The translations under genes and the position numbers were made by a program. This document shows, piece after piece, positions 1 through 14,954 of a DNA stretch of 58,061 bases. Source of the stretch: a virus (lineage: Duplodnaviria; Caudoviricetes); IMG/VR virus record IMGVR_UViG_3300036826_000378, positions 1 to 58,061 of that record; one strand, given 5' to 3'. The notes under the pieces were generated by a model. It had not been told where the DNA came from. It ran no database searches and saw nothing but the letters and a program-made list of their open reading frames with translations. Numbering within the stretch: the first letter of the stretch is position 1; each line of letters opens with the position of its first letter.

Positions 1-258
1 GGGCTGCCGGGCGTCGAAGGCCCGGACCGTCCGCTCCCTCGCCTTCTCCTCTGCCTCGACTCGCTCCTGCGCCCGCGTCTTCGCTTCGGCCAGGGTGGCG
101 ATCGCAGTGCTGTAGTCCTGGTGGTGCCGGTGAAGGTCAGTGTCGACCAGTTGCCAGATCCGGGCCAATCGCTCGATCTCGAAGCGCCCGTCGTCGCTGC
201 GGTACAAGCTGACGCCGACACCCCGGGGCAGCTTGACGCGCTCCCAGGACAGGGGCAT
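1..258 (-). CDS. hypothetical protein, runs off window edge (MPLSWERVKLPRG...)
   Basis: ATG at 258 overlaps the TGA of the upstream gene (TGATG); frame is open to position 1; not in ORF track. Confidence 0.65.
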   Translation of the reverse strand, partial: MPLSWERVKLPRGVGVSLYRSDDGRFEIERLARIWQLVDTDLHRHHQDYSTAIATLAEAKTRAQERVEAEEKARERTVRAFDARQP

Positions 259-464
259 CAGCTCTCCCTCCCGCGCCGGAAGCGCGCCGGCAGCAGCACT
301 GTTGTGTCGCACGCCTCGCACGCCACGGTGCGCTGGCCCGGTCGGACTTCGTCGGCATCGATACCCCAGTCCATCGTCCCGAGGTTGTTCACGAGCGGCT
401 CCTCGCACTCCGGGTTGGGGCAGTCGAGGCGGAACACGGTCGGGACAGCCTTGGCCGTCTTCAC
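258..464 (-). CDS. small Zn-ribbon protein (CPNPEC...CEAC)
   Basis: GTG start in a GTGA overlap, SD-like AGGAG, two Cys pairs. Confidence 0.7.
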   Translation of the reverse strand: MKTAKAVPTVFRLDCPNPECEEPLVNNLGTMDWGIDADEVRPGQRTVACEACDTTVLLPARFRRGRES

Positions 465-745
465 CGCCAGGTTCTCCTGCTGGACGGCGCCTGCGCGTTG
501 GCGATCAGCTCCTCCAGCACCGCGTCCGTCTTGTACTCCGCGTGATCGGTCACCGAGTAGCCGTCCGGGTTGGAGTGGTTGTCGCTCAGGTGCTCGTCCG
601 CCTGCTCGAAGCTGGCGAACGGGCCGTACCCTGTGGCGAACTCGCGCCAGTCGAAGGCACCCTTCGGGGCGTCCCAGTTCTCCAGCAGGTAGTACCAGCA
701 GCCCGGCGCCGGCTCGATGAACGAGCAGTTCAGTCCGCTGCTCAC
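461..745 (-). CDS. hypothetical phage protein
   Basis: GTG at 745 after AAGGAGG, GTGA overlaps at both ends. Confidence 0.75.
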   Translation of the reverse strand: MSSGLNCSFIEPAPGCWYYLLENWDAPKGAFDWREFATGYGPFASFEQADEHLSDNHSNPDGYSVTDHAEYKTDAVLEELIANAQAPSSRRTWR

Positions 746-933
746 GATCGATCGCCCTCCTTGAGCCACGCCTTGTACTTGGCCAGCTCGCTCTCCAGCT
801 CCGTGACGCGCTCCAGGGCGTCACGGACGGCGTGCGGCGAGGGGCTGTAGTCGCCAGCGTGCCGGCCACCCACTTCGCGCGCCCTGGCCAGCCAGGCGTC
901 CGTGTGCCGCTTCAGGTCGTCCAGCTCAGCCAC
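742..933 (-). CDS. hypothetical protein
   Basis: SD AAGGAGG, coupled to neighbours, high GC3. Confidence 0.7.
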   Translation of the reverse strand: MAELDDLKRHTDAWLARAREVGGRHAGDYSPSPHAVRDALERVTELESELAKYKAWLKEGDRS

Positions 934-1177
934 GCTCCACCTCCTTCGCCTCGCGGGCGGCCAGGGCCAGCCGGTACGGGCAATCGCACAGTTCGATGCC
1001 CTCGTGCTCGCCGCGGCAGTCGTTGACGTGGCCCTCTTCGAGAACCGCCCGCCGCAGCCCCTCCAGCTCGTCCAGGGCGGCGAGCAGGCGCTCGGCCCGT
1101 TCGCCGTCGAGGACCACGAAGCCGGGCATCCCGCACCAGCGGCACGTCGGGTTGTAGGGGAAGATGGCGAAGCTCAC
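926..1177 (-). CDS. small Cys/His-containing hypothetical protein
   Basis: CRWC and CDC motifs; GTG overlaps the stop at 1174. Confidence 0.65.
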   Translation of the reverse strand: MSFAIFPYNPTCRWCGMPGFVVLDGERAERLLAALDELEGLRRAVLEEGHVNDCRGEHEGIELCDCPYRLALAAREAKEVERG

Positions 1178-2153
1178 GTCTTTCCCCTCCGGTCACAGGA
1201 CCGGGCCGGGGACTCCAGGGGGAGCACGGGCTGATGCCGCCAGTGCCGCAGCCGCGCGATGGCGGTGGCGGCCGCGTACTCGTCCTCCTCGATGCCGACA
1301 AAGCCGAGGCTCCCGAGCCCATGAACGGGTCCAGCACCACCCCGCCCGGCGGCGTCACGAGCCGGCACAGCCAGCGCATCAGCTCGATCGGCTTGACCGT
1401 CGGGTGGGTGTTGCGCTGACCGGGTGCCAGGCCCGCTGAGCGCTCCTTGGCGCTCGACCGGGCGACGTAGAAGAAGCGTGACGCGCCGCCGCTGTCGCCG
1501 AGCGTTCCGCTCTGCCGATCCAGCTCGGCCACCGGGCAGCCCTCGACACACTGTCCGTTGCAGCCCTCGGCGTGGCTGAGCACGAGGTTCGCCGGCCACC
1601 GGCCAGTCGGGTTCCGGTCCTCGCCAGCCACCCAGGTCTTGCTGTAGGCGTCCTGGGCGTAGGTCGAGCCGGTGGCCTTGCTGTACCCGGCCGGAAACTT
1701 CGCCTTGTCGCTGCAGGCGATCCGGCTGTCCTCGATCCGCAGCCCACCCGGCCCCGGCTTCCGCACCAGCCACCAGACCTCGGTCGCCGGCTTCAGATAC
1801 CGCCCCTTCGGCCAGCCGTTCCCAAAGTGATGCGCGACGAACCCGTTGGGGTGGATCTCCCAGCCAGCCTCCTCCAGCGCGTTCGCGGTCCAATGCGCGG
1901 TGCGCGGGATGGCCCAGCCGAGGCCGAGGGCGCCGGGCCTGGCGACCCGGAACGCCTCCGCCATGCGCTCGGCGAGCCACTCCTCCCAGCGCGCTCGGCC
2001 GCCACGGTTGGAGTCCCACGCCGCGCCCATGAACGAGATGCCGGCCGGCGGGTCGGTCACCACCGCGTCGACGCTGGCGTCCGGCAGTTCGCGTAGCCGT
2101 TTCAGGCAGTCGCCGACCAGGACGCGCACCGGCCCGTCGCTCCAGTCCGTCAT
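1174..2153 (-). pseudogene. N6-adenine/N4-cytosine DNA methyltransferase (beta class), frameshifted near 1310
   Basis: VTDPPA (motif IV variant), HPTVKP, VLDPFMGSG (motif I); expected FVGIEEDEY...IARL tail continues in another frame ending at 1174. Confidence 0.85.
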
Positions 2154-2239
2154 CCCACCCTCCGGTCACGAACCCGGCGCGGGCGTCGCTCGACCGCCGC
2201 CATCATCTCGGCGAACGTGGGCATGTCGCCCTTCGTCAC
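2150..2239 (-). CDS. very small coupled ORF (..MPTFAEMMAAVERRPRRVRDRRVG)
   Basis: GTGA overlap upstream and ATGA overlap with the MTase start. Confidence 0.45.
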   Translation of the reverse strand: MTKGDMPTFAEMMAAVERRPRRVRDRRVG

Positions 2240-2685
2240 GCCGCCCACACCAGCCGCTCCATCCGGCTCAGGGCCACCAGGGCGCTGAGCCTCGCCTCCT
2301 GGAGCCCGGTCACCTCGGCCATGCAGCTCGCGATCTGGCCGGAGGTGAGACGTGCCGGCAGCTCGTTCAGGACATCCATCAGGAGCGCGTCGGTGGCCCG
2401 GTGGAACTCGTCACGCAACCGCGCGATCGTCAGGGCCAGAGCGTTCAGCGTCAGCTCCAAGCCGTGCTCCTCGATCGCCAGCATCACGAGCTCGTCGTGG
2501 GTCTTCGTCCGGGCGTTTTCGCTCCGGACCGCGGAGTTCCGCAGGTGCTCCAGCCGGCTGTAGAGTCGGGTCCGCACGATCCCGATCTCGCGGTCCGCGC
2601 TCTGGGTTACCCGGTACATGACGATCAGGTTCTCGCGGTGGGTCAGAGCCATACTCCCCTCCTGGGCTATGGTGGCTGCGTTCAT
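2236..2685 (-). CDS. hypothetical helical protein, probable leaderless start (MNAAT...)
   Basis: ATG-AAC 6 nt after TATACT; alternative SD-led in-frame ATG at 2652. Confidence 0.75.
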   Translation of the reverse strand: MNAATIAQEGSMALTHRENLIVMYRVTQSADREIGIVRTRLYSRLEHLRNSAVRSENARTKTHDELVMLAIEEHGLELTLNALALTIARLRDEFHRATDALLMDVLNELPARLTSGQIASCMAEVTGLQEARLSALVALSRMERLVWAA

Positions 2686-2720
2686 AGGTTAAGTATATGC
2701 GCGTGCGCCTAGAATAGCAA
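2683..2720 (-). promoter_or_regulatory. early promoter P1 (box class I)
   Basis: TTGCTA-17-TATACT-6-ATGAAC; GGCGCACGCGCA abuts the -10. Confidence 0.8.
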
Positions 2721-2723
2721 CAC

Positions 2724-2757
2724 AAAAGAGAAAGGGCCGGCGGAGATCGCCGGCCCT
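2724..2757 (-). terminator. intrinsic terminator
   Basis: AGGGCCGGCG/CGCCGGCCCT stem followed by TTCTCTTTT on the minus strand. Confidence 0.8.
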
Positions 2758-2773
2758 CGTCACCACGTTGAGT

Positions 2774-3050
2774 TCAGGTTTGGTCGAGCGCCTTGAGGCG
2801 GTACCACTCCCGCTTGTGCTCGCACCACCGCAGCCCGCGGGGGCAGGTGCAGGTGAGGCCCTGGCCGTCGCGTAGCGGCTCGACAGTGCGGTACAGCGGC
2901 GCTTCGGAACGGGACAGGATGATGAGCTGGATGTGCTCGGGCTGCAACCAGCAGTGCTTGGAGAGGGGGCTCCAGGTTGGCCAGGTCCAGCTCGGGCGTC
3001 TCGGGCGGCGCCAGCGTGGGGTCGCCGTCCAAGACGCTGAGGCGGCGCAT
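2774..3050 (-). pseudogene. SWIM-type Zn-finger protein, frameshifted at G5 run 2965-2969
   Basis: removing one base joins MRRLSVLDG...LEP to LSKHC...CTCPRGLRWCEH; span is 3n+1. Confidence 0.65.
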
Positions 3051-3160
3051 CAGCGCGGCCCCATCGAAGCGAGGAAGAACGGCAGCGCCTCCGCGACCAG
3101 CTTGTCCTCCACCAGGATGACGAAGCCGCACACGATGACGAGCCGAATCCAATCGCCCAC
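3050..3160 (-). CDS. small hydrophobic peptide (MGDWIRLVIVCGFVILV...)
   Basis: GTG directly after upstream TAA; TGATG overlap downstream. Confidence 0.5.
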   Translation of the reverse strand: MGDWIRLVIVCGFVILVEDKLVAEALPFFLASMGPR

Positions 3161-3355
3161 TTACGCGGCCTGGGTGTTCTGGCTGGGCTGCCAGTAGCCG
3201 CCCGGCACGGGCACCCAGTAACCCTTGAGGGGGTGGTTGTAGTCGGAGACCCACTTGGCCATCCGGGGACGCGCGGCGTCGATGTCGCGCCGGGTCCGCT
3301 CCCATGCCTGGGCCAGCGTGATCTCGTCGGTCGTCTTCGGAGCAGTGGCGTTCAT
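3161..3355 (-). CDS. hypothetical protein, probable leaderless start (MNATAP...)
   Basis: ATG-AAC 6 nt after TACAAT. Confidence 0.7.
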   Translation of the reverse strand: MNATAPKTTDEITLAQAWERTRRDIDAARPRMAKWVSDYNHPLKGYWVPVPGGYWQPSQNTQAA

Positions 3356-3379
3356 GCTCCTATTGTAACGATACCGCTG
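3353..3379 (-). promoter_or_regulatory. early promoter P2 (box class II)
   Basis: CAGCGGTATCGT-TACAAT-6-ATGAAC; no clear -35. Confidence 0.7.
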
Positions 3380-3398
3380 CTGTCGTGCGCGTCGACGT

Positions 3399-3724
3399 TC
3401 AGATGTCGAAGAGGGATGGCTGCGTGTCGCCGGCCGCTGTTGGAGGGGCCGGGGTTGGCGCAGCCTGGCTGAGTGCCTTGAGCCCGGGTCCGTCCAGCAT
3501 CTTCAGGTGGCGCTCCACCTCGGCCATGTACGTCACGGCGCGCAGCCATGCGCACCGCTTCTTGTGGCGGCCGGTCCGCTCGTCCATGGGGGCAGGCATG
3601 ATCTCGGCGTGGCAGTACGTGCAGGTGCAGACGTACAGGTTCCCCCGTGCTGTTGGGGCTCGATCGCCACGAGGTCGCGGACCAGGACGTAGATCGACGG
3701 GAGCGGCTCCCGGTCCGCGGCCAC
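3399..3724 (-). pseudogene. Cys-rich protein with C-terminal QPSLF, frameshifted at C5 run 3642-3646
   Basis: GTG overlaps upstream TAG; adding one G joins MAADREP...QHGG to NLYVCTCTYCH...QPSLFDI. Confidence 0.6.
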
Positions 3725-4008
3725 TACGCGCGTCGCTCCTGATCCCCACGCGCCAGCAGCAACGCCAGCACGAGAGCCGCCACGCCGGCCGCCACGAGGA
3801 TGGCGACCAGGAAGGGCCGGGGCCAGGCCGCCAGCTCGCGCTCCAACCGCACCAGCCACGGCACCTGGGCCTGCGCCGCGAGCGCCGGAGCGTCCGGGCC
3901 CGGCTGGCCGCAGACCGGGCACCAAGTCCCCGGATGGAGCAGGGGCGGACGCTGGGTGAAGCAGCGAGGGCAGGCGATCGTCGGTTCAGGCTCGTTCAGG
4001 GGCACCAT
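3724..4008 (-). CDS. Zn-ribbon plus single transmembrane protein
   Basis: CPRC/CPVC pairs, hydrophobic C-terminal helix, SD AAGGAGG. Confidence 0.7.
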   Translation of the reverse strand: MVPLNEPEPTIACPRCFTQRPPLLHPGTWCPVCGQPGPDAPALAAQAQVPWLVRLERELAAWPRPFLVAILVAAGVAALVLALLLARGDQERRA

Positions 4009-4009
4009 C

Positions 4010-4369
4010 TCAGCTCGCCTCCTTCACCGAACGCTGGGCTTCCGCCAGCCGGCTCATGGCGTCCTCCAGCCGATCGAACTCCGGTCCGTCTGGCGAGACA
4101 TCGCTCATCCAGGCGTCCCAGGCCCTCAGCGTGCCCGCCACCGTGCGCACGAACGCCGAGCTGGCCGCCGCGGCGCGCAGAGCCATGACGAGGTCGCGCG
4201 AGCATCCGCCCGCCTCCGCGGCGTCGGAGTGCTGGTGGCCGCAGCTCCACACGATCTTGCTGCGGCCACTGCGCAGGACTCCGACCCACCACGAGAAGTG
4301 CTCGCCGGTGGGGTCGCCCGGGGGGCCGACCCTGAGAATGCCGGGGCGAATGCCGAGGACAGGCGCCAC
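4010..4369 (-). CDS. hypothetical protein
   Basis: tight packing with neighbours, high GC3. Confidence 0.65.
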   Translation of the reverse strand: MAPVLGIRPGILRVGPPGDPTGEHFSWWVGVLRSGRSKIVWSCGHQHSDAAEAGGCSRDLVMALRAAAASSAFVRTVAGTLRAWDAWMSDVSPDGPEFDRLEDAMSRLAEAQRSVKEAS

Positions 4370-4370
4370 C

Positions 4371-4787
4371 TCAGCTCTCCCTCGTCAGCGGCTCGATCCG
4401 CAGCAGGGTGATCGTGCCGGTCTGCCCGAACTGCTTCGCCAGCGCGTGAGCAGCGCAGCACCTCGCCGTGACGGTCTCCGCGTGGCCAGGCCCGATCTGG
4501 ACGCGCCAGGTGACGCGGAAGAGAGCCCGGTTCCCGGCGAGCCAGCACGTGACGTCGTCGCAGAGTTGAACGTTCCGGTACCTGGCCCCGACTCGGCGCC
4601 AGTAGTCCTCGGAGGACACCTGGAGCATCTCCAGCTCGTGGGTGCGACAGCGGAGGCTGGGAGCGTAGTCGGCCGTGAACGCGGTCGGGCAGGGGCTCTT
4701 GGGATCGTCCGCCAGCGGGCACGCGAAGTGTCGGAGTTGGGGCGGAGCGCTTGCCTTCATCTTCTCGTACAGCCGGAACCAGCTCAT
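4371..4787 (-). CDS. Cys-rich hypothetical protein (MSWFRLYEKM...)
   Basis: ATG 1 nt after the ftsK stop, SD GGAGG. Confidence 0.65.
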   Translation of the reverse strand: MSWFRLYEKMKASAPPQLRHFACPLADDPKSPCPTAFTADYAPSLRCRTHELEMLQVSSEDYWRRVGARYRNVQLCDDVTCWLAGNRALFRVTWRVQIGPGHAETVTARCCAAHALAKQFGQTGTITLLRIEPLTRES

Positions 4788-4788
4788 C

Positions 4789-7128
4789 TCAGCCCTCCAC
4801 TTCGAGCTGCTCCAGCAGCTCATCGACTTCGGCTCCACTCATCAGCACCTCGCGGGACTTCGAGCCCTGGTAGGGCCCGATCACCCGGTTGCGCTCCAGC
4901 ATGTCGATGATCCGACCGGCCCGCGAGTAGCCGACGTTGAACTTGCGCTGAACCCCTGAGACGGAAGCGGCGCCTTCGGCGGCCACCGCACGCGCCGCAC
5001 GCGCGAACAGCGGGTCCAGCTTGCGCTCTCCGTCCGGACCCAGCTCGGTGGCGGGCAGGAAGCCCTCCAGAACCGCCTCGTGGTAGGACGGCTCGCCCTG
5101 GCCCTTCCAGAAGTTGACCAGCGCCTCGATCTCCGGATCCGAGACGAAAGCACCCTGGATGCGGGTGGGCTTGCCCGCGTCGACCGGCAGGTAGAGCATG
5201 TCGCCGCGGCCCAGCAGCTTCTCGGCGCCGACCGAGTCCAGGATCACCCGGCTGTCCACCTGCGAGCCGACCGCGAACGCGATCCGGCTCGGGATGTTGG
5301 CCTTGATGAGGCCGGTGATGATATCGGTCGACGGGCGCTGAGTGGCGATCACGAGGTGGAGGCCAACCGCGCGCGCGAGCTGCGCGATCCGGCAGACCAG
5401 TTCCTCGATCTCGCCGGCCGCCACCATCATCAGGTCGGCCAGTTCGTCGATCACGATCACGACGTGGGGCAGCTCGCGAGCCCGCCGGACCTTCGCGCGC
5501 TCGTTGTAGACCGCGATGTTGCGGACGCCCTCGTGGTGCAGCAGCTTGTACCGCCGCTCCATCTCGGCGACGGCCCAGCGCAACGCGCCGGCCGCCTGAG
5601 CGGGTTCCACGATGACTGGAACGACGAGGTGCGGCAGATCGGTGTACTGCTGGAGCTCGACACGCTTCGGGTCGATCAGCACCATGCGGAGCTGGGCCGG
5701 GGTGAGCTGGAGCAGCAGGGAGCAGATCATTGCGTTGATCGCCACGCTCTTGCCCTGCCCGGTCGCGCCCGCGATCAGCAGGTGTGGCATCCGCGTCAGG
5801 TCGGCCGCGACACATGCGCCCGCGACGTCGTTCCCGATGGCCAACGGCAGGTAGTGGTTCCCACGCTGGAAGGCCGGAGAGGCAACGACCTCTCCGAGCG
5901 TGACAAGGGTGGCGGTCTTGTTGGGCACCTCGATACCGATAGCCTGCTTGCCCGGGATCGGCACCTCCAGGCGAATCGGCGAGGCCGCCAGCGCCAGCGA
6001 GAGATCGTTCTGAAGACGCACGATCTTGCCGACCTGGACTCCCGCGGCCGGCTGCACCTCGTACTGCGTGACCGCGGGGCCGGCGTTGACTCCCACGACC
6101 TTGCCGGCAGCCCCGAAGGTCTTCAGCGTCTCTTCGATGATCCGGACGTTCCGCTTGATCTCGTCCTGCATCCGGTTGCTCTTGGCGACGGCCGGCGTCA
6201 GGAGGGAGCCGGCATCCGGCCGGTCCCACTCGACATCCTCTGAGCCGTCGTCCCACTCGCCCACGATCGTTTCGATCGGAGTGTCGTCGTTGGCCTCACC
6301 CACCTCGGCCAGGTGCCGCTCGAAGGCGTGGTCTTCCGGCATCGGCGGGACGTTCTCGGCGTCGTCACCGGACTCCAAGTCCAGGGGAGTCTGCTCGACA
6401 GGCCCGGCAGGCCCGGCAGCCGGCGGGGCAGGCTGGGCCGGCTCTGGAGCCGGACGTGGAGTTGGCGCCGGAGCCGGCTGGCGCTGGGGGCGCAGGTTGT
6501 TCAGGCGCTCGCGCTCGCCCCACACCTTCTGGCCCGCCTCCACGACAGCCAGGAGGGGCTTGGCTAGGTCGCGCAGGCCCAGGAACGCCGCCAGCCCGAT
6601 GACGACCACCAGAAGCAGCGCCGTGATTCCGGGGCTGATGTGATCGACCAGGGGGCGCGTGAACCAGAAAGCGATCCAGCCGCCGAGACGCGGCGCTGGG
6701 ATGCTGAGCAGGCCCAACAGGGCGAACAGGACGATCGTCGCGCAGAGCACCTGCCAACTTGTCAGATTGATCCGCGACCACAGCAGCGCTACGCCGACGA
6801 AGATCATGCCGGGGAGCGCGATGAGCCACCCGATACCGAACAGGCCACGAGCGAGGTAACTCAGGTCGCGGAGGGCCGCGTAGTCCGACGGGAAGATGCT
6901 GACGATCGAGACGATGCCGACCAGCGCCAGCAGGACGCCGAGGATGCCGCGGGTCTGCTCGGGGGAGAGCCGGCCCAGCTCGGTGACGGCGTCTTCGATG
7001 ACGTCTCCGATCGCGCTCCCAATGCCGAGGAAGTCGAAGTGGTGGCCCCCCGCGCGCGAGGGCGCACGCCGTACCGTTGTGGTGCGCCGGGCCGGTTGCC
7101 GGCGCGAGGTTCGCCGCCGGGTGCTCAT
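4789..7128 (-). CDS. ftsK: DNA translocase FtsK/SpoIIIE, full length (TM region, Pro-rich linker, alpha, motor and gamma domains)
   Basis: Walker A GATGQGKS, IDPKRVEL, Walker B IVIDELADL, ATQRP, GAEKLLGRGDML, gamma domain VQRKFNVGYSRAGRIIDMLE; SD GAGGAGG before ATG 7128. Confidence 0.95.
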   Translation of the reverse strand: MSTRRRTSRRQPARRTTTVRRAPSRAGGHHFDFLGIGSAIGDVIEDAVTELGRLSPEQTRGILGVLLALVGIVSIVSIFPSDYAALRDLSYLARGLFGIGWLIALPGMIFVGVALLWSRINLTSWQVLCATIVLFALLGLLSIPAPRLGGWIAFWFTRPLVDHISPGITALLLVVVIGLAAFLGLRDLAKPLLAVVEAGQKVWGERERLNNLRPQRQPAPAPTPRPAPEPAQPAPPAAGPAGPVEQTPLDLESGDDAENVPPMPEDHAFERHLAEVGEANDDTPIETIVGEWDDGSEDVEWDRPDAGSLLTPAVAKSNRMQDEIKRNVRIIEETLKTFGAAGKVVGVNAGPAVTQYEVQPAAGVQVGKIVRLQNDLSLALAASPIRLEVPIPGKQAIGIEVPNKTATLVTLGEVVASPAFQRGNHYLPLAIGNDVAGACVAADLTRMPHLLIAGATGQGKSVAINAMICSLLLQLTPAQLRMVLIDPKRVELQQYTDLPHLVVPVIVEPAQAAGALRWAVAEMERRYKLLHHEGVRNIAVYNERAKVRRARELPHVVIVIDELADLMMVAAGEIEELVCRIAQLARAVGLHLVIATQRPSTDIITGLIKANIPSRIAFAVGSQVDSRVILDSVGAEKLLGRGDMLYLPVDAGKPTRIQGAFVSDPEIEALVNFWKGQGEPSYHEAVLEGFLPATELGPDGERKLDPLFARAARAVAAEGAASVSGVQRKFNVGYSRAGRIIDMLERNRVIGPYQGSKSREVLMSGAEVDELLEQLEVEG

Positions 7129-7247
7129 GTGGGATCTCCCTCCTCGGTGGTGGCTTCCATGTTGCCGCCCGGGACGAGACCGTGGGAGCGCGCGACCCAG
7201 CAGAGCTGGGCCCGAGCGGGAACCGCGGCCCTCGTGGTGGCGTTCAT
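7125..7247 (-). CDS. 40-aa leaderless ORF (MNATTR...) coupled to ftsK
   Basis: ATG-AAC 6 nt after TATAAT; its TGA overlaps the ftsK ATG (ATGA). Confidence 0.55.
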   Translation of the reverse strand: MNATTRAAVPARAQLCWVARSHGLVPGGNMEATTEEGDPT

Positions 7248-7271
7248 GAGGCAATTATAACTGTAGCGCTG
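7245..7271 (-). promoter_or_regulatory. early promoter P3, leftward (box class II)
   Basis: CAGCGCTACAGT-TATAAT-6-ATGAAC. Confidence 0.75.
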
Positions 7272-7288
7272 CAATTGTGGCGCCGGGG

Positions 7289-7328
7289 TTGCGCGAGCGT
7301 CAGCAGTACCGCTAAAATTGACCGCATG
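7289..7328 (+). promoter_or_regulatory. early promoter P4, rightward (box class II)
   Basis: TTGCGC-18-TAAAAT-7-ATGAAC with CAGCAGTACCGC before the -10. Confidence 0.8.
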
Positions 7329-7508
7329 AACGCCACCGCCACACGACGCCCGCGCAACGCTCCTCGCCGCCAGATCGTGCGGTGGGTCGAGCGGGGCGTG
7401 TCCTACGGCTGGATCGCGCCTTCGCAGCGTGCCGCCCTCCGGAGGGTGCGCGAGTTGCGGAAGGGCGTCGATCCGTACGCCGATTTCAGCCCGACGGTGC
7501 AGCCGTGA
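7326..7508 (+). CDS. small basic protein, leaderless (MNATATRR...)
   Basis: starts at P4; GTGA coupling downstream. Confidence 0.65.
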   Translation: MNATATRRPRNAPRRQIVRWVERGVSYGWIAPSQRAALRRVRELRKGVDPYADFSPTVQP

Positions 7509-8155
7509 TCGAGCGGCCCGCCATCTGTCTCGACACGCCCTGGGGCCAGGTTCAGGCCATCCTGAACTCGGGCATCAGCGCCTATGTGAGCGCGGGCTCC
7601 GATGGCGACTCAAACCCTGCTGGCATCACGATCAACCGCGTCGCGTACCGCCTCCAGCTCCGACTGCACTGCGGCACGGCCGGCTGGTGGGCCTCCGGGC
7701 ACGACTCGCTCACGCGCCTGGATGGTCGTGGTGGCGCGTCGGCCGCCGCGAACCACATGCTGAGCGAGCTGGTGGAGCTGTTCGCCCACTGGGCCAGGGG
7801 CCACCGGGAAGTGCTGGCGGACGCGCAGACCGCCTACCTGGAGCGCGAGCTGGCGCGGGTGGACGAGTTCATCCGCGTCGACCTGGATCGCCTACGTGAG
7901 CACGAGGGCGACCGCCGCAAGATTCTGGCCATGCTGGGCCGGGAGCCCGAGGCGTCCCCGCTGGCGTTGCTGGCGGCGGCGGTGCATGAGTACCTCGATG
8001 GCGAGCTCGTGGCAGCGCGACATTGCCCGAGCTGCGGCGGTTCGCTCCTGCGAGGAGGCCAGCACGAGGAGGGCTGCGGACTGGCGGCGGTCGCCGCCGC
8101 ATACGTGGTTGCGCGGCCTGATTCGGGCCTGACTGGCCTGGGCTTGCCCGCATGA
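7505..8155 (+). CDS. hypothetical protein with C-terminal CPSC..H..C; paralog of next gene
   Basis: GTGA/ATGA overlaps; similarity to 8152-8646. Confidence 0.7.
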   Translation: MIERPAICLDTPWGQVQAILNSGISAYVSAGSDGDSNPAGITINRVAYRLQLRLHCGTAGWWASGHDSLTRLDGRGGASAAANHMLSELVELFAHWARGHREVLADAQTAYLERELARVDEFIRVDLDRLREHEGDRRKILAMLGREPEASPLALLAAAVHEYLDGELVAARHCPSCGGSLLRGGQHEEGCGLAAVAAAYVVARPDSGLTGLGLPA

Positions 8156-8646
8156 CCGCGCCTCGCCACTCGCTGGTGACGGCATTCGGGGTCGTGGACG
8201 TCCAGGTCAATGCCTCGGATCGTCTGCACCTGAGCGCCGGCCACATCCGATCGAGCAGCAAGGCGGGCCTGCGCATCAACGGCGTCTGGTACAACCTGAC
8301 GCTCGATCTCGTGCGCAAGCCCGGCGAGGGTTGGACCGTGGACGAGACCGGCTGGGTGTGGCGCTACGGGCTGCGCCGGCAGCGGGCGACGGCGACGGGT
8401 GACGACCACGCTTCCGAGGCGGCGATCGAGAAGGCCAAGCAGATCCTGGAAGACGTCGCGCGATGGGCTGACCGGTACTCAGGCGTCATCGGCGCCGCCC
8501 GCATCCGCGGCATGGAGCTTGCGCTGCGGCACGCGGAGGAGAACGTCAGGCGTCTCCGCCGGGAGCTGCGCGCGGCAGAGATCGAACACTTCGAGGTGCG
8601 TGCTGAGATGGGACTGGGCCCCGCGCCCGTCTCGGAGGAGGAGTAA
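8152..8646 (+). CDS. hypothetical protein with coiled-coil C-terminus
   Basis: ATGA overlap, high GC3. Confidence 0.75.
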   Translation: MTAPRHSLVTAFGVVDVQVNASDRLHLSAGHIRSSSKAGLRINGVWYNLTLDLVRKPGEGWTVDETGWVWRYGLRRQRATATGDDHASEAAIEKAKQILEDVARWADRYSGVIGAARIRGMELALRHAEENVRRLRRELRAAEIEHFEVRAEMGLGPAPVSEEE

Positions 8647-8649
8647 AGC

Positions 8650-8994
8650 ATGGCCGTGGACTACGCCGCGTTGAGCTGGCGACAGACCAGCATGGAGCGC
8701 GCCAACGAGCACCTCGGCGAGCGGGTCAAGCTCTATTGAGCGGTCCTGATCAGCTTCGGTCTGAAGCTGCCGAAGGGCCACCTGCCCGTCTTCTCCGTCG
8801 CCGACGAGGAGGAAGCGCGGGTGTTGCTGACGCAAGCCTGTCCGCGTGTGGCCGAGGACACCTGGCTGGCCGAGGAGCTGGCCGAGGAGCTGGCCGAGGA
8901 GCAGACGTTGGACAACCTGTCCCGCCTCAGCCATCGGCTGGCGGTTCATCACGACTTGCTCAAGGAGAGCGGTCGGTGCCGGTGTACCACCTGA
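8650..8994 (+). pseudogene. hypothetical gene with in-frame TGA at 8737-8739
   Basis: SD GGAGGAG before ATG 8650; same frame continues past the TGA to a TGATG overlap at 8994. Confidence 0.6.
8866..8901 (+). repeat. tandem repeat CTGGCCGAGGAG x3 (LAEE x3)
   Basis: directly visible. Confidence 0.9.
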
Positions 8995-9197
8995 TGGGAA
9001 TGCGCTTTACCACCGACACCCACACCGGCAAGCGGTTCGGCTGGCACTTCAGCGCCAAGTACCGCGGGCTCTACGTGCCGGTTCTGGTCAACCGCGGTCC
9101 GCTGCACCCGAAGCGTACGCCGCGAAAGCTGCTAGAGGAGCTGAACCCGGGGGTGGACCTGGATGCCGTCCTCCAGCAAGACCCGAGCGAGGGTTGA
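8994..9197 (+). CDS. hypothetical protein (MGMRFTTD...)
   Basis: TGATG overlap; alternative GTG at 8976. Confidence 0.65.
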   Translation: MGMRFTTDTHTGKRFGWHFSAKYRGLYVPVLVNRGPLHPKRTPRKLLEELNPGVDLDAVLQQDPSEG

Positions 9198-9199
9198 GG

Positions 9200-9817
9200 A
9201 TGAGCCGAGGGCAGCGCGTCCCGCAACTCCCCGTTCCGGCGGAGGAGTTCAAGCTGACCGAGCAGCACATCGCTCTCCTGCGCCGGGCGCAGATCGGGTG
9301 GCGCGAGCCCACGATGGGCGCGTTCGGTCCCCTCGGCGTCGGCGGGCCAGCCGTCCATGGAGTTCGCCCCTACGGGGACAGCAACATCGGGCAGAGCATC
9401 GCTGACATCTGCGGTATCCCGTACGACCCGGACGTGCTTTACAGTCAGGGCCCCGAGAGCGACGCCCTGCGCGCCCGCCTCATGGCGCTCCATGAGGAGA
9501 CCAAGACGGCTCTCCAGATCGTCCTGGAGACGGGCACGTTCACCCCGGGCCACTACTTCCGGCAGCACTGCTGCCCGTGGGCAATGGTCCCCGTGCTGGA
9601 CGGCAACGCCGCCAGGATCTCCACCCGGCCGCTCACCCAGGAGATGGTCAGCCACCTCGTCAAGGTCGCTCACGCCGCGGTCACGATGGTCGGGTCCGGT
9701 TCCCAGCAGCAGGGCACGTACTTCACGTTGGATCGGCAGGAGGACGTCGAGACGGCTCTCGCCTACCTGCGCGAGCAGCGCATCCTGCACGGCTACGAGC
9801 TGGTGCCGAAGGGGTGA
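9200..9817 (+). CDS. hypothetical phage protein (..RPYGDSN.. motif)
   Basis: ATG 2 nt after upstream stop, high GC3. Confidence 0.75.
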   Translation: MSRGQRVPQLPVPAEEFKLTEQHIALLRRAQIGWREPTMGAFGPLGVGGPAVHGVRPYGDSNIGQSIADICGIPYDPDVLYSQGPESDALRARLMALHEETKTALQIVLETGTFTPGHYFRQHCCPWAMVPVLDGNAARISTRPLTQEMVSHLVKVAHAAVTMVGSGSQQQGTYFTLDRQEDVETALAYLREQRILHGYELVPKG

Positions 9818-10385
9818 GCCGGCGCCGCCCCGAGCCGCCCGTCCGGGAGACCGACTGCTGGCACCCGACGTCTCACCCGCACTGGGTGCGCATCGTGGCT
9901 GCTGGTGAGCCACGTCTCCTGGTCGTCTGCGGCTCCTGTGCACGACTCGCCAACCAGTTCGATCCGATCCCCTGTCGGGGCTGCGGTGGCTTCTCTCCGC
10001 GCATCGACGGAGAGTTCAACCACCCGCACGGCTACTACGGCAACGGCAGTCAGGTGGACGGCATGTGCACGAGCTGGTGTCACAAGTGCCTGGGGTCGCT
10101 GCCGATCCTGTGCAGCCAGTGCTTGGGCACCCCGCGCCAGGAGCACGTCTGCGGTGAGCCGACACGGCTCAGCGCCGGGGCCGGCGAGCGGCTCGCCTAC
10201 CGAGTGGCCTGGGCGGGCCTGGTCAAGGGGACCTCCTGGTACTCCGAGCGTCAGGAGTCCTGGTATGGGCTGCGCCACATGTTGGGCGCCTCCACGACGA
10301 GACCTTCGATCTCGTGTGGGTCGAGGGCGGCCGGCCGCGGTGGAGGCATCTGGGACCCAAGGGCTTCCAAGAGCTGTTGCCTTGA
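9814..10385 (+). pseudogene. multi-Cys Zn-binding protein, probable frameshift near 10284-10286
   Basis: CGSC, CRGC, CHKC, CSQC; high-GC3 frame RLHDETFDLVW...ELLP ends at 10385; span is 3n+2. Confidence 0.55.
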
Positions 10386-10414
10386 ACGGGGCACGCGGCT
10401 ACAATTAGAGCATG
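10377..10414 (+). promoter_or_regulatory. early promoter P5 (degenerate class I box)
   Basis: TTGCCT-17-TACAAT-6-ATGAAC; GGGGCACGCGGC. Confidence 0.8.
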
Positions 10415-10636
10415 AACGCTGCCACTGCCAACCGACTCGACCCGGACGCCGTTCTCCGCTACATGCGCTCCGTGGCCGCTGACCACGTGATTATCCATAC
10501 GGTCGATGCGACGCACCTGGCCGAGGATGCTTGTCAGCACTTCAACGCCTTCGGTCCGCCCGAGGAATACGAGGTGCCCGGGGAGTTCTTCGAGCTGGCC
10601 GCCCAGGTGGCCGATGAGTACGAGGCGAGGCAGTGA
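10412..10636 (+). CDS. small acidic protein, leaderless (MNAATANR...)
   Basis: starts at P5. Confidence 0.75.
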   Translation: MNAATANRLDPDAVLRYMRSVAADHVIIHTVDATHLAEDACQHFNAFGPPEEYEVPGEFFELAAQVADEYEARQ

Positions 10637-10894
10637 GCGCCCTGCCGGCCCGCTGGACCGTTCCTGCCATCACGCTCGGCGAGTCGCCCGAACACGAGTT
10701 GATGCGCGAGGATCTCTGCGCAGACGCCTGCCCGCGACTTCGGGGGTGGCCCGCACACGGAGCTGCCGCCGGCACGCTCTCTCTGGCCCTCCCTGGAGGC
10801 AGCAGAGGCGGCCATCGCGCCCACGCTCCAGCGCCTGGTGGGCACGGAAGCGGCCAAGCCCGAGCGGCTGATTCAGCGGAGCCTGTTCGATTGA
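10633..10894 (+). pseudogene. hypothetical protein ending QRSLFD, probable frameshift near 10712-10720
   Basis: after about codon 27 the coding-like frame switches; its TGA overlaps TTG of the next gene. Confidence 0.5.
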
Positions 10895-11154
10895 AGCTCA
10901 GCCGCAACCACCCACGGTGGAACGACCCGGACGTTCAGCGGCTGCGCTACGCCCTGACGATCGCCAACGAGACCCTCCACTGGGACAAGGTGAACGTCTG
11001 GATGGTCGGGCTCGTCAAACCGCCGAACCCCACTCACGTCCTGGCCGAACTCCAGGCCACGCTTGTGAGGTCCCAGGCGAATCGCGATCGGGTCCACCGC
11101 GAGCTGGTCGAGGCGCTCACTGGAATCCGGCAGCCGGATCTCCCCCTCGACTGA
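10891..11154 (+). CDS. hypothetical protein ending QPDLPLD
   Basis: TTGA overlap, GGAG upstream; corresponds to the C-half of ORF-track 10633-11154. Confidence 0.55.
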   Translation: MKLSRNHPRWNDPDVQRLRYALTIANETLHWDKVNVWMVGLVKPPNPTHVLAELQATLVRSQANRDRVHRELVEALTGIRQPDLPLD

Positions 11155-11160
11155 AAATGG

Positions 11161-11201
11161 TTGCGCACGACGTCAGCACTACCGTTACAATAGGCGGCAT
11201 G
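11161..11201 (+). promoter_or_regulatory. early promoter P6 (box class II)
   Basis: TTGCGC-19-TACAAT-7-ATGAAC; CAGCACTACCGT. Confidence 0.75.
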
Positions 11202-11247
11202 AACGCGGGGCCACAAGCCCCACCACCACCGCCAAAGGAGTACGGAA

Positions 11248-11412
11248 GTGAAGCAGACGCACTCGACGCAGATGACCGGCGAGCAGGTCGCGCGCATCCT
11301 CGACACCCGCGACCGGAAGCTGGCCCGCAAGGCGCGGACGATCCAGTTCAAGGCGATCCGCAAGGTCACAGGCCAGGCCGAGCTGCGGGCGGCCGAGGGC
11401 CGGTGGTCGTAA
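11248..11412 (+). CDS. 54-aa basic protein (MKQTHSTQMTGEQVARILD...)
   Basis: SD AAGGAG 7 nt before GTG; followed by a terminator; below ORF-track cutoff. Confidence 0.7.
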   Translation: MKQTHSTQMTGEQVARILDTRDRKLARKARTIQFKAIRKVTGQAELRAAEGRWS

Positions 11413-11439
11413 GGCACGACTTCTTCCCCTCCCTACTGG

Positions 11440-11475
11440 CGGCGGGCCCCTCGATGGGGCCCGCCGTTTTCGTTT
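11440..11475 (+). terminator. intrinsic terminator
   Basis: CGGCGGGCCCC/GGGGCCCGCCG stem plus TTTTCGTTT. Confidence 0.85.
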
Positions 11476-11500
11476 GCAGGCTGCACGCCCAAGGAGAGCG

Positions 11501-11941
11501 ATGAGCGAGACCCGAGACCCGGAGATCAGGCAGCTTGCGGTGGAGCTGCTGAAACACCGCGGCTTCGCGGCCGCCGACGCCAAGCTGCCCGTCTGGAGCC
11601 CGAGTTGGCCGAAGCTGGTCATCGAAGGCTGGGCGTGGGGCGATGGCGACGAGGGCCACGTGCTGCTCGAACTGCACGTCACAATCGACGGTCACCCGGT
11701 AGCCGTCCTTGGTGATGGGGAGCTGTGGTGGCGGGACAGCGCGACCGAGACGACCCTGGAGGCGTTCGACGTCTTCGATCAGTTCCCGACCCTCTCCGCC
11801 GACGAGACCATGAAGGTGGAGAACGCGCTGGACCTGCTGTACGAGCGCTTCGACGGCGCCATCAAGCGGGTGACGCGCGAGCTGATGGACGACGTCCGCG
11901 AGCTGGCCGTTCGATGGGTGGCCGACGCCATGCGCCAGTAG
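11501..11941 (+). CDS. hypothetical acidic protein
   Basis: SD AAGGAG, high GC3. Confidence 0.75.
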   Translation: MSETRDPEIRQLAVELLKHRGFAAADAKLPVWSPSWPKLVIEGWAWGDGDEGHVLLELHVTIDGHPVAVLGDGELWWRDSATETTLEAFDVFDQFPTLSADETMKVENALDLLYERFDGAIKRVTRELMDDVRELAVRWVADAMRQ

Positions 11942-11967
11942 GCGCATGCGCGTATAATGACCGTATG
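11930..11967 (+). promoter_or_regulatory. early promoter P7 (box class I)
   Basis: ATGCGC-17-TATAAT-6-ATGAAC; GGCGCATGCGCG. Confidence 0.8.
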
Positions 11968-12219
11968 AACCGCCATCGCATTGACGATCGCACGTTGACC
12001 GTGGAGCCGCTGACCCAGGAGCTGCGTGCCTATGGCTTGCGTGGCCGGCCGATTCCGAGCGGGACTCCGGCTCGCCACGCGGTGGTCCAGCGGAGCGGCC
12101 AAGGCCGAGTGCTCTCTATCCGAGGCATCTCGATCGAGGCCGCTGACGCCGTGATGACCGCACGGGTCTGCGCCTCGAACGACGAGGGGCGCTACGTGCG
12201 GTCGGAGAGCCGATCGTGA
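11965..12219 (+). CDS. hypothetical protein, leaderless (MNRHRID...)
   Basis: starts at P7; GTGA coupling to the ATPase. Confidence 0.7.
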   Translation: MNRHRIDDRTLTVEPLTQELRAYGLRGRPIPSGTPARHAVVQRSGQGRVLSIRGISIEAADAVMTARVCASNDEGRYVRSESRS

Positions 12220-13700
12220 CGACGAGCGCGAACTGGTTCGCCGTCGACAAGGACGGCCTGGCCAAGCTGCTGCGACGCCGGGGTCCCGGGTTCGCGGTCT
12301 TGGAGCTGCTCCAGAACTCCTGGGACGAGGACGGTGTCACCCGAGTCACCGTCACCCTGGAGCCGATCCTGGGGCGCAAGGGCGTGGCGCGTCTCGTTGT
12401 GGAAGACGACGCACCGGATGGCTTCGCTAACCTGACCCACGCCTACACGCTGTATGCCGAGAGCGCCAAGAAGGCGCAGCCGACGAAGCGCGGTCGCTTC
12501 AACCTCGGAGAGAAGCTGGTCATCGCGCTCTGCGAAGAGGTGACGATCACCAGCACGCGCGGCGGCGTCTCGTTCACCGATCTCGGTCGGGTCGCGACCC
12601 GCCGGAAGCGTGAGCGTGGCAGCCGATTCGAGGCGGTCATTCGCTTCACGCGCTTGGACGTCGAGCGAGCGACGACGGCGGTCTTCGCGGTCCTGCCGCC
12701 GCAGGGAATCGGGACGACCTTCAACGGCCGGCTCCTGGAGCCGCGGACGCCAGTGCTCGCCTTCGAGGCCACTCTGCCGACCGAGCTGGCGGACGAAGAG
12801 GGCTACCTGAAGTCCCGCACCCGGCCGACGACGATCGAGCTGTACGAGGTCCAGTCGGGTGAGGTCGCGACCCTGTACGAGATGGGCATCCCCGTCGTGG
12901 AGCTGCCCGGGGACCGCTGGCACGTCAACATCGACCAGAAGGTTCCGCTGAACGCCGACCGTGACAACGTGACTCCGGCGTACCTGCGCACCGTCAGGAC
13001 GTTCGTCGTGAACCACACGTACGAGCTGCTGACGCGCGAGGACGCCACTGCGACCTGGGCACGGGAGGCGACCGCGGACCCGCGCATCGAGCCGGCCGCG
13101 GTCGTTCATGCGTTGGACGTGATGTTCGGGAAGCGGCGAGTCAGTTTCGACCCGAACGACCTGGAGGCCAACCACCGTGCGGTCTCGGAGGGCTACACGA
13201 TCGTCCATGGCGGCAGCCTGAGCGGCGGACAGTGGGAGCAGGTGAAGCGGTCCGAGGCAATCCGGCCGGCGGGCCGCCTGTTTCCGACACCGCGCCCGGA
13301 GTCGTCACCAGACGGTGAACCGCCGGTGCCCGTGGAGGAGTGGACGCCGCGGATGCGCCTGATCGCCGAGTACGCGCAGATGGTCGGCGGCGTACTACTG
13401 GGCTTCACGCCGAGCGTCGAGTTCTACCGGACGGCGAACAGCGAGTTCTCCGCCTGGTACGGAAGTCGCACAATCGGCTTCTGCATGAAGCGGCTGCGGC
13501 ACTGGTTCGTTCGAGACGAGCTCCCCGACCAGGAAGAGGTAGACCGCCTGCTGATCCACGAGTACGGCCACGAGGGCGGCCCCAACCATCTGAGCCACGA
13601 GTACCACGAGAACCTGTGCCGGCTTGGGGCCCGGATGCGCCGAGTGCTTGCCACGCTGGAGAGCTGGGCGAGCTGGATACCCGAAGGAGAGGCTCGATGA
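12216..13700 (+). CDS. GHKL (HATPase_c) ATPase with C-terminal HExxH zincin-like domain
   Basis: ELLQNSWD (N-box), VEDDAPDG (G1-like), KRGRFNLGEK (G2-like), C-terminal LLIHEYGHE....H. Confidence 0.8.
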   Translation: MTTSANWFAVDKDGLAKLLRRRGPGFAVLELLQNSWDEDGVTRVTVTLEPILGRKGVARLVVEDDAPDGFANLTHAYTLYAESAKKAQPTKRGRFNLGEKLVIALCEEVTITSTRGGVSFTDLGRVATRRKRERGSRFEAVIRFTRLDVERATTAVFAVLPPQGIGTTFNGRLLEPRTPVLAFEATLPTELADEEGYLKSRTRPTTIELYEVQSGEVATLYEMGIPVVELPGDRWHVNIDQKVPLNADRDNVTPAYLRTVRTFVVNHTYELLTREDATATWAREATADPRIEPAAVVHALDVMFGKRRVSFDPNDLEANHRAVSEGYTIVHGGSLSGGQWEQVKRSEAIRPAGRLFPTPRPESSPDGEPPVPVEEWTPRMRLIAEYAQMVGGVLLGFTPSVEFYRTANSEFSAWYGSRTIGFCMKRLRHWFVRDELPDQEEVDRLLIHEYGHEGGPNHLSHEYHENLCRLGARMRRVLATLESWASWIPEGEAR

Positions 13701-13948: not shown

Positions 13949-13954
13949 AGCGCG

Positions 13955-14901: not shown

Positions 14902-14915
14902 CGTTTCACCCTCGT

Positions 14916-14954
14916 GGAGCGGCGGGGCAACGTGCCTCGCCGCTCCTTGCTTTT
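14916..14954 (+). terminator. intrinsic terminator overlapping the P8 -35
   Basis: GGAGCGGCGGGG/CCTCGCCGCTCC stem plus TTGCTTTT. Confidence 0.7.

Follow-up and report, generated by a model that had tools for sequence, protein, structure and literature searches.

Analysis of the IMG/VR virus record IMGVR_UViG_3300036826_000378, a contig of 58,061 bp with about 68% G+C (this whole stretch is called the window below), revealed a minus-strand gene encoding a full-length DNA translocase of the FtsK type. The reading frame opens with an ATG at position 7128, preceded by GGAGGGAG a few bases upstream, and closes with a stop codon at 4789. A complete FtsK had been predicted here from the letters alone; the coordinates proved exact, and the transmembrane helices, linker, alpha domain, beta domain with Walker A and Walker B motifs, and gamma domain were all found. 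The gene and the parts of its product are as follows.

4789 to 7128, minus strand: ftsK-like coding sequence, 779 amino acids (aa), with the full cellular architecture (translation, Pfam, and phrog_1358 at an E value of 2.1e-101)
6559 to 6960, minus strand: N-terminal membrane domain, residues 57 to 190, four hydrophobic helices (Kyte-Doolittle)
6214 to 6543, minus strand: low-complexity Pro/Ala/Glu/Asp linker, residues ~196 to 305 (composition; the Pro/Ala/Glu/Asp-rich stretch spans 216 to 310)
5920 to 6204, minus strand: FtsK alpha domain, residues 309 to 403 (PF17854, 96.7 bits against a cutoff of 22.9)
5059 to 5898, minus strand: FtsK beta domain, the RecA-like motor, residues 411 to 690 (PF01580, motifs, and structure alignment)
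4840 to 5019, minus strand: FtsK gamma winged helix, residues 704 to 763 (PF09397, 81 bits against a cutoff of 30.6)

The FtsK_SpoIIIE family (PF01580) was matched by residues 411 to 600 with 199.1 bits (cutoff, 24). Walker A reads GATGQGKS at residue 454 (nucleotides [nt] 5746 to 5769), and Walker B reads VIVIDE at residue 557 (nt 5443 to 5460). The C-terminal 470 residues, gamma included, align with the solved FtsK structures of Pseudomonas aeruginosa and Escherichia coli (2IUT and 2IUS). The Pfam FtsK_4TM model gave no match to the protein at an E value of ≤0.001; the four helices align with those of cellular homologues. The NCBIfam equivalog model PRK10263 scored 421 bits against a cutoff of 1566 and was covered only at positions 870 to 1350 of its 1355, a low score that is read as a consequence of model length and not as a sign of another family. 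Two other classes of translocase were considered and rejected, namely, a TraB-type conjugative translocase (NCBIfam plasmid_TraB, 46.6 bits against a cutoff of 800) and a type VII ATPase of the EccC/EssC kind (EssC, 116.7 against 778.4 bits; EccCa, 109.5 against 509.15 bits; EccCb, 63.8 against 346.55 bits). Judged by its sequence, the protein is an FtsK, but the gene is not a resident chromosomal one.

Searching a collection of 5.8 billion proteins revealed, besides the protein itself, best matches with 57 to 61% identity over 88 to 93% of its length and 76 to 78% identity over the motor alone. The few proteins with a named source among the best 120 matches came mostly from metagenome-assembled genomes (MAGs) titled "Candidatus Dormibacteraeota" or "Chloroflexi bacterium," and the contigs of the matches were up to 245 kb long. 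The phage FtsK itself is a singleton in this collection (a 100% match with one member, on one contig). In the phylum of a Dormibacteraeota-titled MAG, an FtsK match was present in 197 of 201 genomes, and five of them stood out at 57 to 59% identity over nearly the full length. In the class of genome G066, a match at an E value of ≤1e-100 was obtained in 339 of 374 genomes, nearly always a single one, with a best identity of 61%. Both tallies rest in part on genomes flagged as unpublished. The unpublished genome G174 (locus L168) is a row in the LG+G4 tree and in the alignment of cellular FtsK proteins described below; none of the rows nearest the phage protein (G030, G066, G102, G183, and G201 and the added G442 to G444, G540, and G542) is among the listed unpublished genomes. 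The bacterial group in question, here called Dormibacteria, is named Candidatus Dormiibacterota at NCBI and has, to our knowledge, no cultured member.

The original prediction had called the gene a captured host gene and a good host marker, and both views gained from the phylogeny against cellular FtsK, in which two trees place the phage gene inside the Dormibacteria clade. In an LG+G4 tree of 67 rows, the phage FtsK and 36 cellular proteins formed a 37-row set with a Shimodaira-Hasegawa-like approximate likelihood ratio test (SH-aLRT) value of 100, nested in a 52-row Dormibacteria-type clade (SH-aLRT, 100). The cellular members of the 37-row set, here called the sister clade, grouped apart from the phage protein (SH-aLRT, 89). 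An LG+C20 mixture tree of 31 rows put the phage FtsK at the unresolved base of the same clade (a 20-row set; SH-aLRT, 95). The end branch of the phage FtsK measured 0.84 in the LG+G4 tree and 1.59 in the mixture tree, and the cellular root-to-tip paths, taken as sums of the printed branch lengths, were about 0.5 to 0.9 in both; the phage branch is as long as such a path in the first tree and about two to three times longer in the second. These lengths suggest that the phage protein has evolved at between one and three times the cellular rate, which would fit an old capture or a later one from an unsampled lineage. By its placement in both trees, the phage ftsK is host derived, from Dormibacteria-type bacteria, and we infer that the phage host would be a member or near relative of the sister clade. 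The phylogenetic placement, together with a position outside the conserved host synteny and behind a phage-specific module (both described below), supports the captured-gene claim.

Conservation was assessed by comparing the phage FtsK with 48 cellular FtsK proteins of the host class. In the beta domain, all 125 of 125 columns that are invariant in the cellular proteins were kept, and the median identity between the phage protein and the sister clade was 0.77, compared with 0.80 within the sister clade; the identity to the domain of the host clade ranged from 77 to 82%. The alpha domain kept 22 of 24 such columns (median identities, 0.70 and 0.80), and the gamma domain kept 23 of 24 (0.83 and 0.91). 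The membrane domain and linker are about 22 to 25% identical to the cellular ones, and the two host clades are equally far apart from each other in this region. In E. coli and Pseudomonas FtsK, the consulted parts of PMC5052618 describe a gamma surface, formed by the ends of helices 2 and 3 and the intervening loop, with which both XerD and the DNA of the FtsK-orienting polar sequences (KOPS) make contact. The corresponding contact stretch of the phage protein, VQRKFNVGYSRAGRI, is identical to the sister clade consensus, whereas the other Dormibacteria clade differs. Changes at the otherwise conserved positions 725, 745, and 746 fall outside this stretch and flank it on both sides. The identical contact stretch suggests that the phage FtsK should read the DNA motif of the sister clade and meet the same partner. 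Taken together, the protein is probably a genuine, phage-borne, full-length FtsK that is predicted to be active.

In the host genomes, ftsK lies in a conserved neighborhood with the order dapA, uracil-DNA glycosylase (UDG), RNase J, a small open reading frame (ORF), ftsK, HTH_25, pgsA/cinA, recA, recX, rny, ymdB, spoVS, and miaB, in which pgsA and cinA are fused. Fifteen kilobases around ftsK are collinear in the five nearest host genomes (G066, G030, G183, G201, and G102; loci L178 to L182), and 12 of the 13 ORFs of this neighborhood have Pfam matches. For the 20 phage ORFs that flank ftsK, no homologue (E ≤ 1e-3) was present in these five 15-kb stretches or in an 11.5-kb Dormibacteraeota-titled stretch of a sixth genome (L075). 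The window bears out the predicted setting among phage ORFs: genes for capsid, tape measure, tail, and a GH25/LysM endolysin lie on the same contig. The G+C content at third codon positions of ftsK (GC3, 0.87) is in line with that of the phage genes, and the next downstream ORF overlaps the 3' end of ftsK. The remainder of the leftward operon is as follows.

1 to 4838, minus strand: rest of the leftward operon downstream of ftsK, with small ORFs without a known family and an N6/N4 DNA methylase at 912 to 2153 (GC3-based ORF calls; Pfam, PHROG, and NCBIfam scans)

The methylase accounts for the one Pfam match (E ≤ 0.001) among the 14 ORF candidates at 1 to 4838. Read support across both junctions had been proposed as the check for a chimeric assembly. 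Sequencing run X1, possibly the source sample, contained 0.96 of the sampled words of 3500 to 9000, and its summed contig depth was even, at about 10 to 17, along 1 to 16000 outside the conserved motor; the raised depth in bins 4807 to 5874 is read as stemming from contigs with FtsK genes of other organisms. Run X2, from a different study, contained 0.47 of the same words. In run X4, from a third study, a 448-nt contig (record 25) with 12 differences covers 4753 to 5200 and bridges the 3' junction. Support was obtained in this way for the 3' junction, but the 5' junction had no bridge by 31 letters among the contigs listed. Logan contigs are short, and the lack of a bridge among the contigs listed carries no weight as a sign of a break. 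Runs of the second and third studies contain parts of both ftsK flanks. These results indicate that the phage ftsK is not the host's own locus and that a chimera is probably to be discounted.

Analysis of the region upstream of ftsK revealed a module of the form TAnAATTG, 4 to 5 nt, and RTGAAC, which occurs in five copies in the window. Its core, AATTG-N4-5-RTGAAC, has 5 matches compared with 0.03 expected, and five were reached in 0 of 100 shuffles. No copy was present in 645 kb of host contigs or in the nearest phage relative, G202. The copies and the short ORF between the module and ftsK are as follows.

7242 to 7259, minus strand: module copy 1, heading the leftward ftsK operon (TATAATTG, 4 nt, ATGAAC; pattern and alignment)
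7125 to 7247, minus strand: 40-codon upstream ORF (MNAT...), whose TGA overlaps the ftsK ATG (ATGA; translation)
7313 to 7331, plus strand: module copy 2, divergent, heading the rightward operon (ATG at 7326, 60-aa ORF; pattern and alignment)
14970 to 14987, plus strand: module copy 3 (ATG at 14982; pattern)
16109 to 16126, plus strand: module copy 4 (ATG at 16121, methyltransferase ORF, phrog_15480; pattern)
22748 to 22766, plus strand: module copy 5 (GTG at 22761; pattern)

Four of the module-headed ORFs start with MNAT or MNCT. A perfect TATAAT lies 6 nt upstream of the 40-codon ORF. The divergent region at 7129 to 7325 (197 bp) is associated with a 16-nt inverted repeat (7236 to 7251 and 7322 to 7337; 94% complementary), each arm of which holds the start of a small MNAT ORF. 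Ahead of these starts stand -10-like hexamers, TATAAT for the minus-strand ORF and TAAAAT for the plus-strand one. In the alignment, a TTG-type hexamer can be read 17 to 18 nt upstream of the -10 in four module copies. With the -10 hexamer so close to the start codon, transcripts from the module, among them those of early genes, may be leaderless or nearly so, with a conserved 5' end. The position claimed for ftsK as the lead large gene was confirmed, as no other long gene precedes it in the leftward operon. The claim of a phage-type promoter held in part: a generic sigma-70 scan returned 0 sites in 4300 to 7700, because the ftsK copy combines a perfect -10 with a poor -35, but the TATAAT belongs to the five-copy phage-specific module. 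This module is the strongest argument that ftsK is part of the phage's own program, and it provides a handle on early regulation in this phage.

The nearest relative in IMG/VR, G202 (55,122 bp; CheckV completeness, 59%), has a capsid protein that is 60% identical, and its structural genes are collinear with those of the window: matches were found for 17 of the 76 window ORFs, all within 29389 to 55797. G202 carries a partial terminase, a Mu-type portal, and a tyrosine integrase on the minus strand after the lysis genes. This lysogeny-side cassette is the positional counterpart of the ftsK operon in the window. The cassette after the lysis genes of G202 comprises the integrase, a Gp3-like factor, a PD-(D/E)XK nuclease, RuvC, and a DNA methylase, and G202 also encodes a peptide deformylase (L298:6383-7054). 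Presence of the gene in related phages had been proposed as a further check; the nearest relative, G202, lacks ftsK, which indicates that the gene is not conserved in this phage lineage. Capsid variants from close strains (99%, 98%, 92%, and 86% identity) occur only on other contigs, some of them short. A single-protein capsid scan of IMG/VR gave no match, and isolated phages are distant, with a best capsid identity of about 30%.

Comparison with cellular and phage-borne translocases showed where the window FtsK stands apart. It has the same order of helices, linker, alpha, beta, and gamma as the cellular FtsK of Dormibacteria (median identity, 77% for beta and 83% for gamma); unlike the cellular proteins, it carries about 15 extra residues in its arginine-rich N-terminal tail, and its gene lies behind a phage module instead of in the RNase J-ftsK-pgsA/cinA-recA neighborhood. 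The FtsK-like proteins of Cluster J mycobacteriophages (Omega gp203 and others) are, according to the consulted parts of PMC3706429, closest to the FtsK of the host group, with about 60% identity in the matching part. They resemble the window protein as phage-encoded FtsK/SpoIIIE motors nearest to the FtsK of the host group, and the window protein aligns with them over residues 335 to 672 only. The Cluster J proteins are described there as having no membrane domain and a gamma domain unlike any bacterial one, whereas the window FtsK has both parts and a host-like gamma. Their authors presumed that they act on phage DNA (PMC3706429, in the same parts). In Bacillus phages Sam46 and Sam112, a 60-aa FtsK_gamma domain is fused to the small terminase (PMC8190038, as far as the consulted parts extend). 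Shared with the window is the use of a host-like gamma domain by a phage; the difference is that gamma stands alone there, while the window encodes a whole translocase, and a terminase was not found on this contig.

Two PHROG families, phrog_1358 and phrog_3551, are annotated as "FtsK/SpoIIIE-like protein" in the category moron, auxiliary, and host takeover, and phrog_1358 matches the window FtsK. TraB of Streptomyces conjugative plasmids joins an FtsK-type motor to a membrane anchor and, at the C terminus, to a winged helix for the recognition of 8-bp repeats. This anchor-motor-winged-helix layout is shared by the window protein, which, unlike TraB, has true FtsK alpha and gamma domains and no clustered 8-mers beside its gene. 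Among 73 ORFs with FtsK homology in IMG/VR, 27 combine alpha, motor, and gamma, with at least three hydrophobic helices upstream in 14 of the 27; about 38 of the 73 are short and motor-only. In six scanned loci of the 27, most ORFs around the full-length gene are unannotated, and Portal_Mu, Mu_F, ThyX, GH25, Gp3-like, DUF2637, and DUF6879 occur alongside. These alpha-beta-gamma proteins are at most 51% identical to the window FtsK, and we infer other hosts for their contigs from actinobacteria-typical families and one contig with 49% G+C. Five large viral-labeled IMG/VR contigs (L008, L013, L018, L023, and L054; 99 to 154 kb, 67 to 71% G+C) share a cassette of DUF6879, DUF5753 with HTH_31, an alpha-beta-gamma FtsK, and DUF2637; L023 also has a Mu-type portal, and the five are possibly actinobacterial temperate phages or conjugative elements. 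In the literature searched, as far as the sources extended, no full-length FtsK in a phage was described and no tested function was given for such IMG/VR or PHROG proteins; a paper on phage sporulation genes does not mention FtsK/SpoIIIE. At the level of the listing, literature on Dormibacteria phages had no title with the group and one abstract with a term. The capture of whole FtsK genes by phages looks recurrent yet undescribed.

To address what the phage FtsK acts on, the window was scanned for dif-like sites and strand-skewed octamers, a search that had been proposed for this genome and that returned neither. The dif motifs used were the canonical ones of E. coli and Bacillus subtilis together with a degenerate core, which may not be those of the host; the best matches in the window had 11 to 12 mismatches in 28 positions, and the degenerate core had 3 in 12. 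At two or fewer mismatches, the degenerate core was found in 0 of the 5 nearest host genomes. The motif GGGNAGGG, quoted in the consulted parts of PMC8190038, occurs twice on the plus strand and seven times on the minus strand of the window, compared with about 14 expected per strand; this motif is foreign and may not be that of the host. There were no strongly strand-skewed octamers in the window and no clustered 8-mers beside ftsK, the only cluster being a 12-bp array at 8849 to 8902. This array is a perfect 12-bp tandem repeat of 3.2 copies (8865 to 8902, plus strand) with a partial copy at 8849; it sits at a gene boundary, at a distance of 1.7 kb from ftsK, and three extra bases are inserted here in a variant from run X3. 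As for the KOPS of the host, no G-rich octamer was skewed in both G183 (400 kb) and G066 (245 kb), where the strand counts of GGGNAGGG were 39/36 and 17/16, respectively, and the top words look codon driven.

A Xer-like recombinase is encoded in 5 of the 5 nearest host genomes, with 185 to 198 bits; these scores lie below the XerD cutoff, which was passed by only 4 of the 13 matching genomes of the control set. When a complex between the phage gamma domain and the catalytic half of this host recombinase was predicted, the score was 0.00 in two runs without controls, which speaks neither for nor against contact. The lack of a dif-like site, a KOPS skew, and an octamer cluster makes host DNA a likelier target than phage DNA, and the host chromosome and division site are on balance favored as the target, given the motifs scored. 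Of the roles that the original prediction had offered, segregation or dimer resolution of a phage episome is disfavored by the missing dif-like site and KOPS skew in 58 kb, and TraB-like DNA transfer is disfavored by the TraB model score and the missing clustered 8-mers; both results speak against these roles without excluding them. Interference with host division, the third role offered, is a candidate.

We give slightly better than an even chance to the explanation that the window encodes a genuine, host-derived, and probably active phage FtsK that most likely supplies or overrides FtsK activity on the host chromosome and at the division site. According to this explanation, the protein would insert into the host membrane via its four helices and form hexamers on DNA, possibly mixed with the single FtsK of the host. 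It would load on the host's own orienting motifs and could contact the Xer recombinase of the host. FtsK activity at the host chromosome and division site would thereby be supplied or overridden in infected or lysogenic cells, and the benefit might be that septa are cleared of DNA, chromosome dimers are resolved, and division is timed to the advantage of the phage. Pumping of phage DNA would be a less likely role. Several points weigh against this explanation. The role of the protein is deduced from sequence comparisons. The absence of KOPS and dif sites in the phage holds for motifs of other bacteria, with which it was scored, and for an incomplete contig. G202 has neither an FtsK nor any of the early genes of the window. 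No other FtsK copy more than 61% identical exists in the collections searched. Since the membrane domain is just about 25% identical to the cellular ones, the protein may fail to be recruited to the divisome. The 5' junction remained unbridged among the contigs listed, and a match to the phage capsid profile was obtained in 0 of 374 host-class genomes, which leaves the host assignment without an independent link.

An unlikely alternative, though one to be taken seriously, is a division decoy, in which the membrane and linker part or poisoned mixed hexamers would titrate divisome partners or host FtsK, and the stalled cell would serve as a larger phage factory. It would account for the retention of four helices and linker despite fast evolution, parts that phage FtsK-like proteins described so far have lost (PMC3706429, consulted parts). 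Mixed rings would be plausible with a beta domain this close to the host clade, nearly all matching host-class genomes have a single FtsK match to be titrated, and ftsK stands first in an early or lysogeny-side operon. A decoy, however, would have no need for a complete set of invariant motor columns or for a gamma surface identical to that of the host. Slightly less probable is an action on phage DNA, with the pump serving to segregate or resolve an episomal prophage or replication concatemers, or to carry phage DNA from cell to cell or between compartments, as TraB and SpoIIIE do. The TraB layout of anchor, motor, and winged helix fits this idea, as do the presumption of the Cluster J authors, the incomplete contig, whose missing part may hold the sites, and the perfect 12-bp tandem array at 8865 to 8902. 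Against it stand the poor dif-like matches, the frequency of GGGNAGGG below expectation on both strands without a strongly skewed octamer, the TraB score, and a gamma contact stretch that is host identical and not phage specific, compared with the divergent gamma of Cluster J in the consulted description.

It is improbable that ftsK is a passenger, captured by chance, not yet decayed, and without a role for the phage. The missing gene in G202 and the singleton status in the protein collection would fit a passenger. However, the 779 codons are intact and all invariant motor columns are kept although the protein is at most 61% identical to any cellular copy, which suggests that the gene has been under purifying selection for a long time since it diverged, unless its donor lineage is unsampled. 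The location directly behind the phage-specific module and a coupled upstream ORF, as well as the phage-like GC3, also speaks against a passenger. Even less probable is that the FtsK of a tailed phage commands the host Xer recombinase away from the septum, so that integration and excision at host dif could proceed without an integrase of the phage's own. No integrase in 58 kb, a host-identical gamma surface, and a host Xer-like recombinase are compatible with this idea; the tyrosine integrase of G202 at the corresponding place and the missing dif-like site in the window are against it. An artifact is the least probable explanation and a very remote one; the contig would then be a chimeric host-phage assembly or would contain the host's ftsK beside an integrated prophage. 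Chimeras are possible among metagenome contigs, the 5' junction has no 31-letter bridge among the contigs listed, and the depth is inflated in bins 4807 to 5874. The strongly conserved host neighbors are, however, all absent beside the phage ftsK; the upstream region carries the phage module and an inverted repeat shared with the rightward operon; and the downstream ORF overlaps the ftsK 3' end. The even X1 depth outside the motor, the X4 contig from another study across 4753 to 5200, and the parts of both flanks in runs of the second and third studies also argue against an artifact.

The phage FtsK-like proteins described in the consulted sources are trimmed motors, while the window FtsK keeps the whole divisome-anchored machine. 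The whole machine and the similar genes in other viral contigs suggest that host takeover or lysogenic conversion by soil phages may include a so far neglected control of chromosome segregation, dimer resolution, or division. A clade-specific gamma surface on a host-derived gene also offers a concrete, testable host assignment for a soil phage. The Xer-exploiting elements known to us so far are filamentous phages and islands. Commandeering of Xer by a tailed phage, if true, would be a double-stranded DNA phage version of such elements.

The contig is an incomplete genome of a siphovirus-like tailed phage (Caudoviricetes). Pfam matches (E ≤ 0.001) were obtained for just 10 of the 78 ORFs scanned. 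Pfam and PHROGs also recognized a scaffold or cement-like protein in addition to the following genes.

29389 to 57093, plus strand: structural and lysis module marking the tailed phage (Pfam and PHROGs; collinear with G202)
29389 to 31758, plus strand: Mu-type protease/scaffold protein (Pfam/PHROGs)
32222 to 33163, plus strand: major head protein, HK97-type capsid (phrog_1005, E value of 3.6e-59)
45888 to 48920, plus strand: tape measure protein (Pfam/PHROGs)
53777 to 54928, plus strand: tail protein (phrog_1887)
55831 to 57093, plus strand: GH25 and LysM endolysin (phrog_291)

Scans with Pfam, PHROGs, and NCBIfam, also at relaxed thresholds, revealed no large terminase, portal, integrase, repressor, or replication gene in 58 kb. 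The hunt for the terminase included Pfam at an E value of ≤0.5, stop-to-stop ORFs, frame plots, and NCBIfam and found none in the contig, and the Portal_Mu and Terminase_6C proteins of G202 had no homologue among the contig ORFs. A 756-aa ORF in the head-tail region (38104 to 40374, plus strand) was considered as a portal or terminase and rejected; it has no family match, and its Atlas model resembles beta-propellers or FG-GAP/PLL-like proteins (TM score, 0.4 to 0.5). The contig ends are open, with no overlap and no closure, and the left end cuts an ORF. The incompleteness of the contig is concluded from these open ends and from the terminase and portal without a match. A distance of 20 kb separates the capsid gene from the upstream terminase and portal in Microbacterium phage ValentiniPuff (capsid identity, 29.6%), where these two lie behind about 48 small genes; this layout and the 59% completeness of G202 fit an incomplete contig.

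Further features of the window were recorded. Three methyltransferase genes are present, namely, the N6/N4 DNA methylase at 912 to 2153 (minus strand), the phrog_15480 member at 16121 to 16786 (plus strand), and a UbiE-like gene at 27626 to 28780 (plus strand), in which the S-adenosylmethionine (SAM)-dependent domain sits within a 384-aa protein. A 494-aa protein (12216 to 13700, plus strand) has a weak GHKL/sacsin-type ATPase N terminus that scored under the family cutoffs. ARAGORN called a tRNA-Ser (CGA) at 31823 to 31917 (minus strand), opposite the scaffold ORF, which is probably a false call. The gene at 48917 to 53743 (plus strand) encodes a 1608-aa tail protein with a CBM35/CBM6 carbohydrate-binding domain, and it contains a 183-bp tandem duplication (2 copies, 78% matches) at 52074 to 52434.

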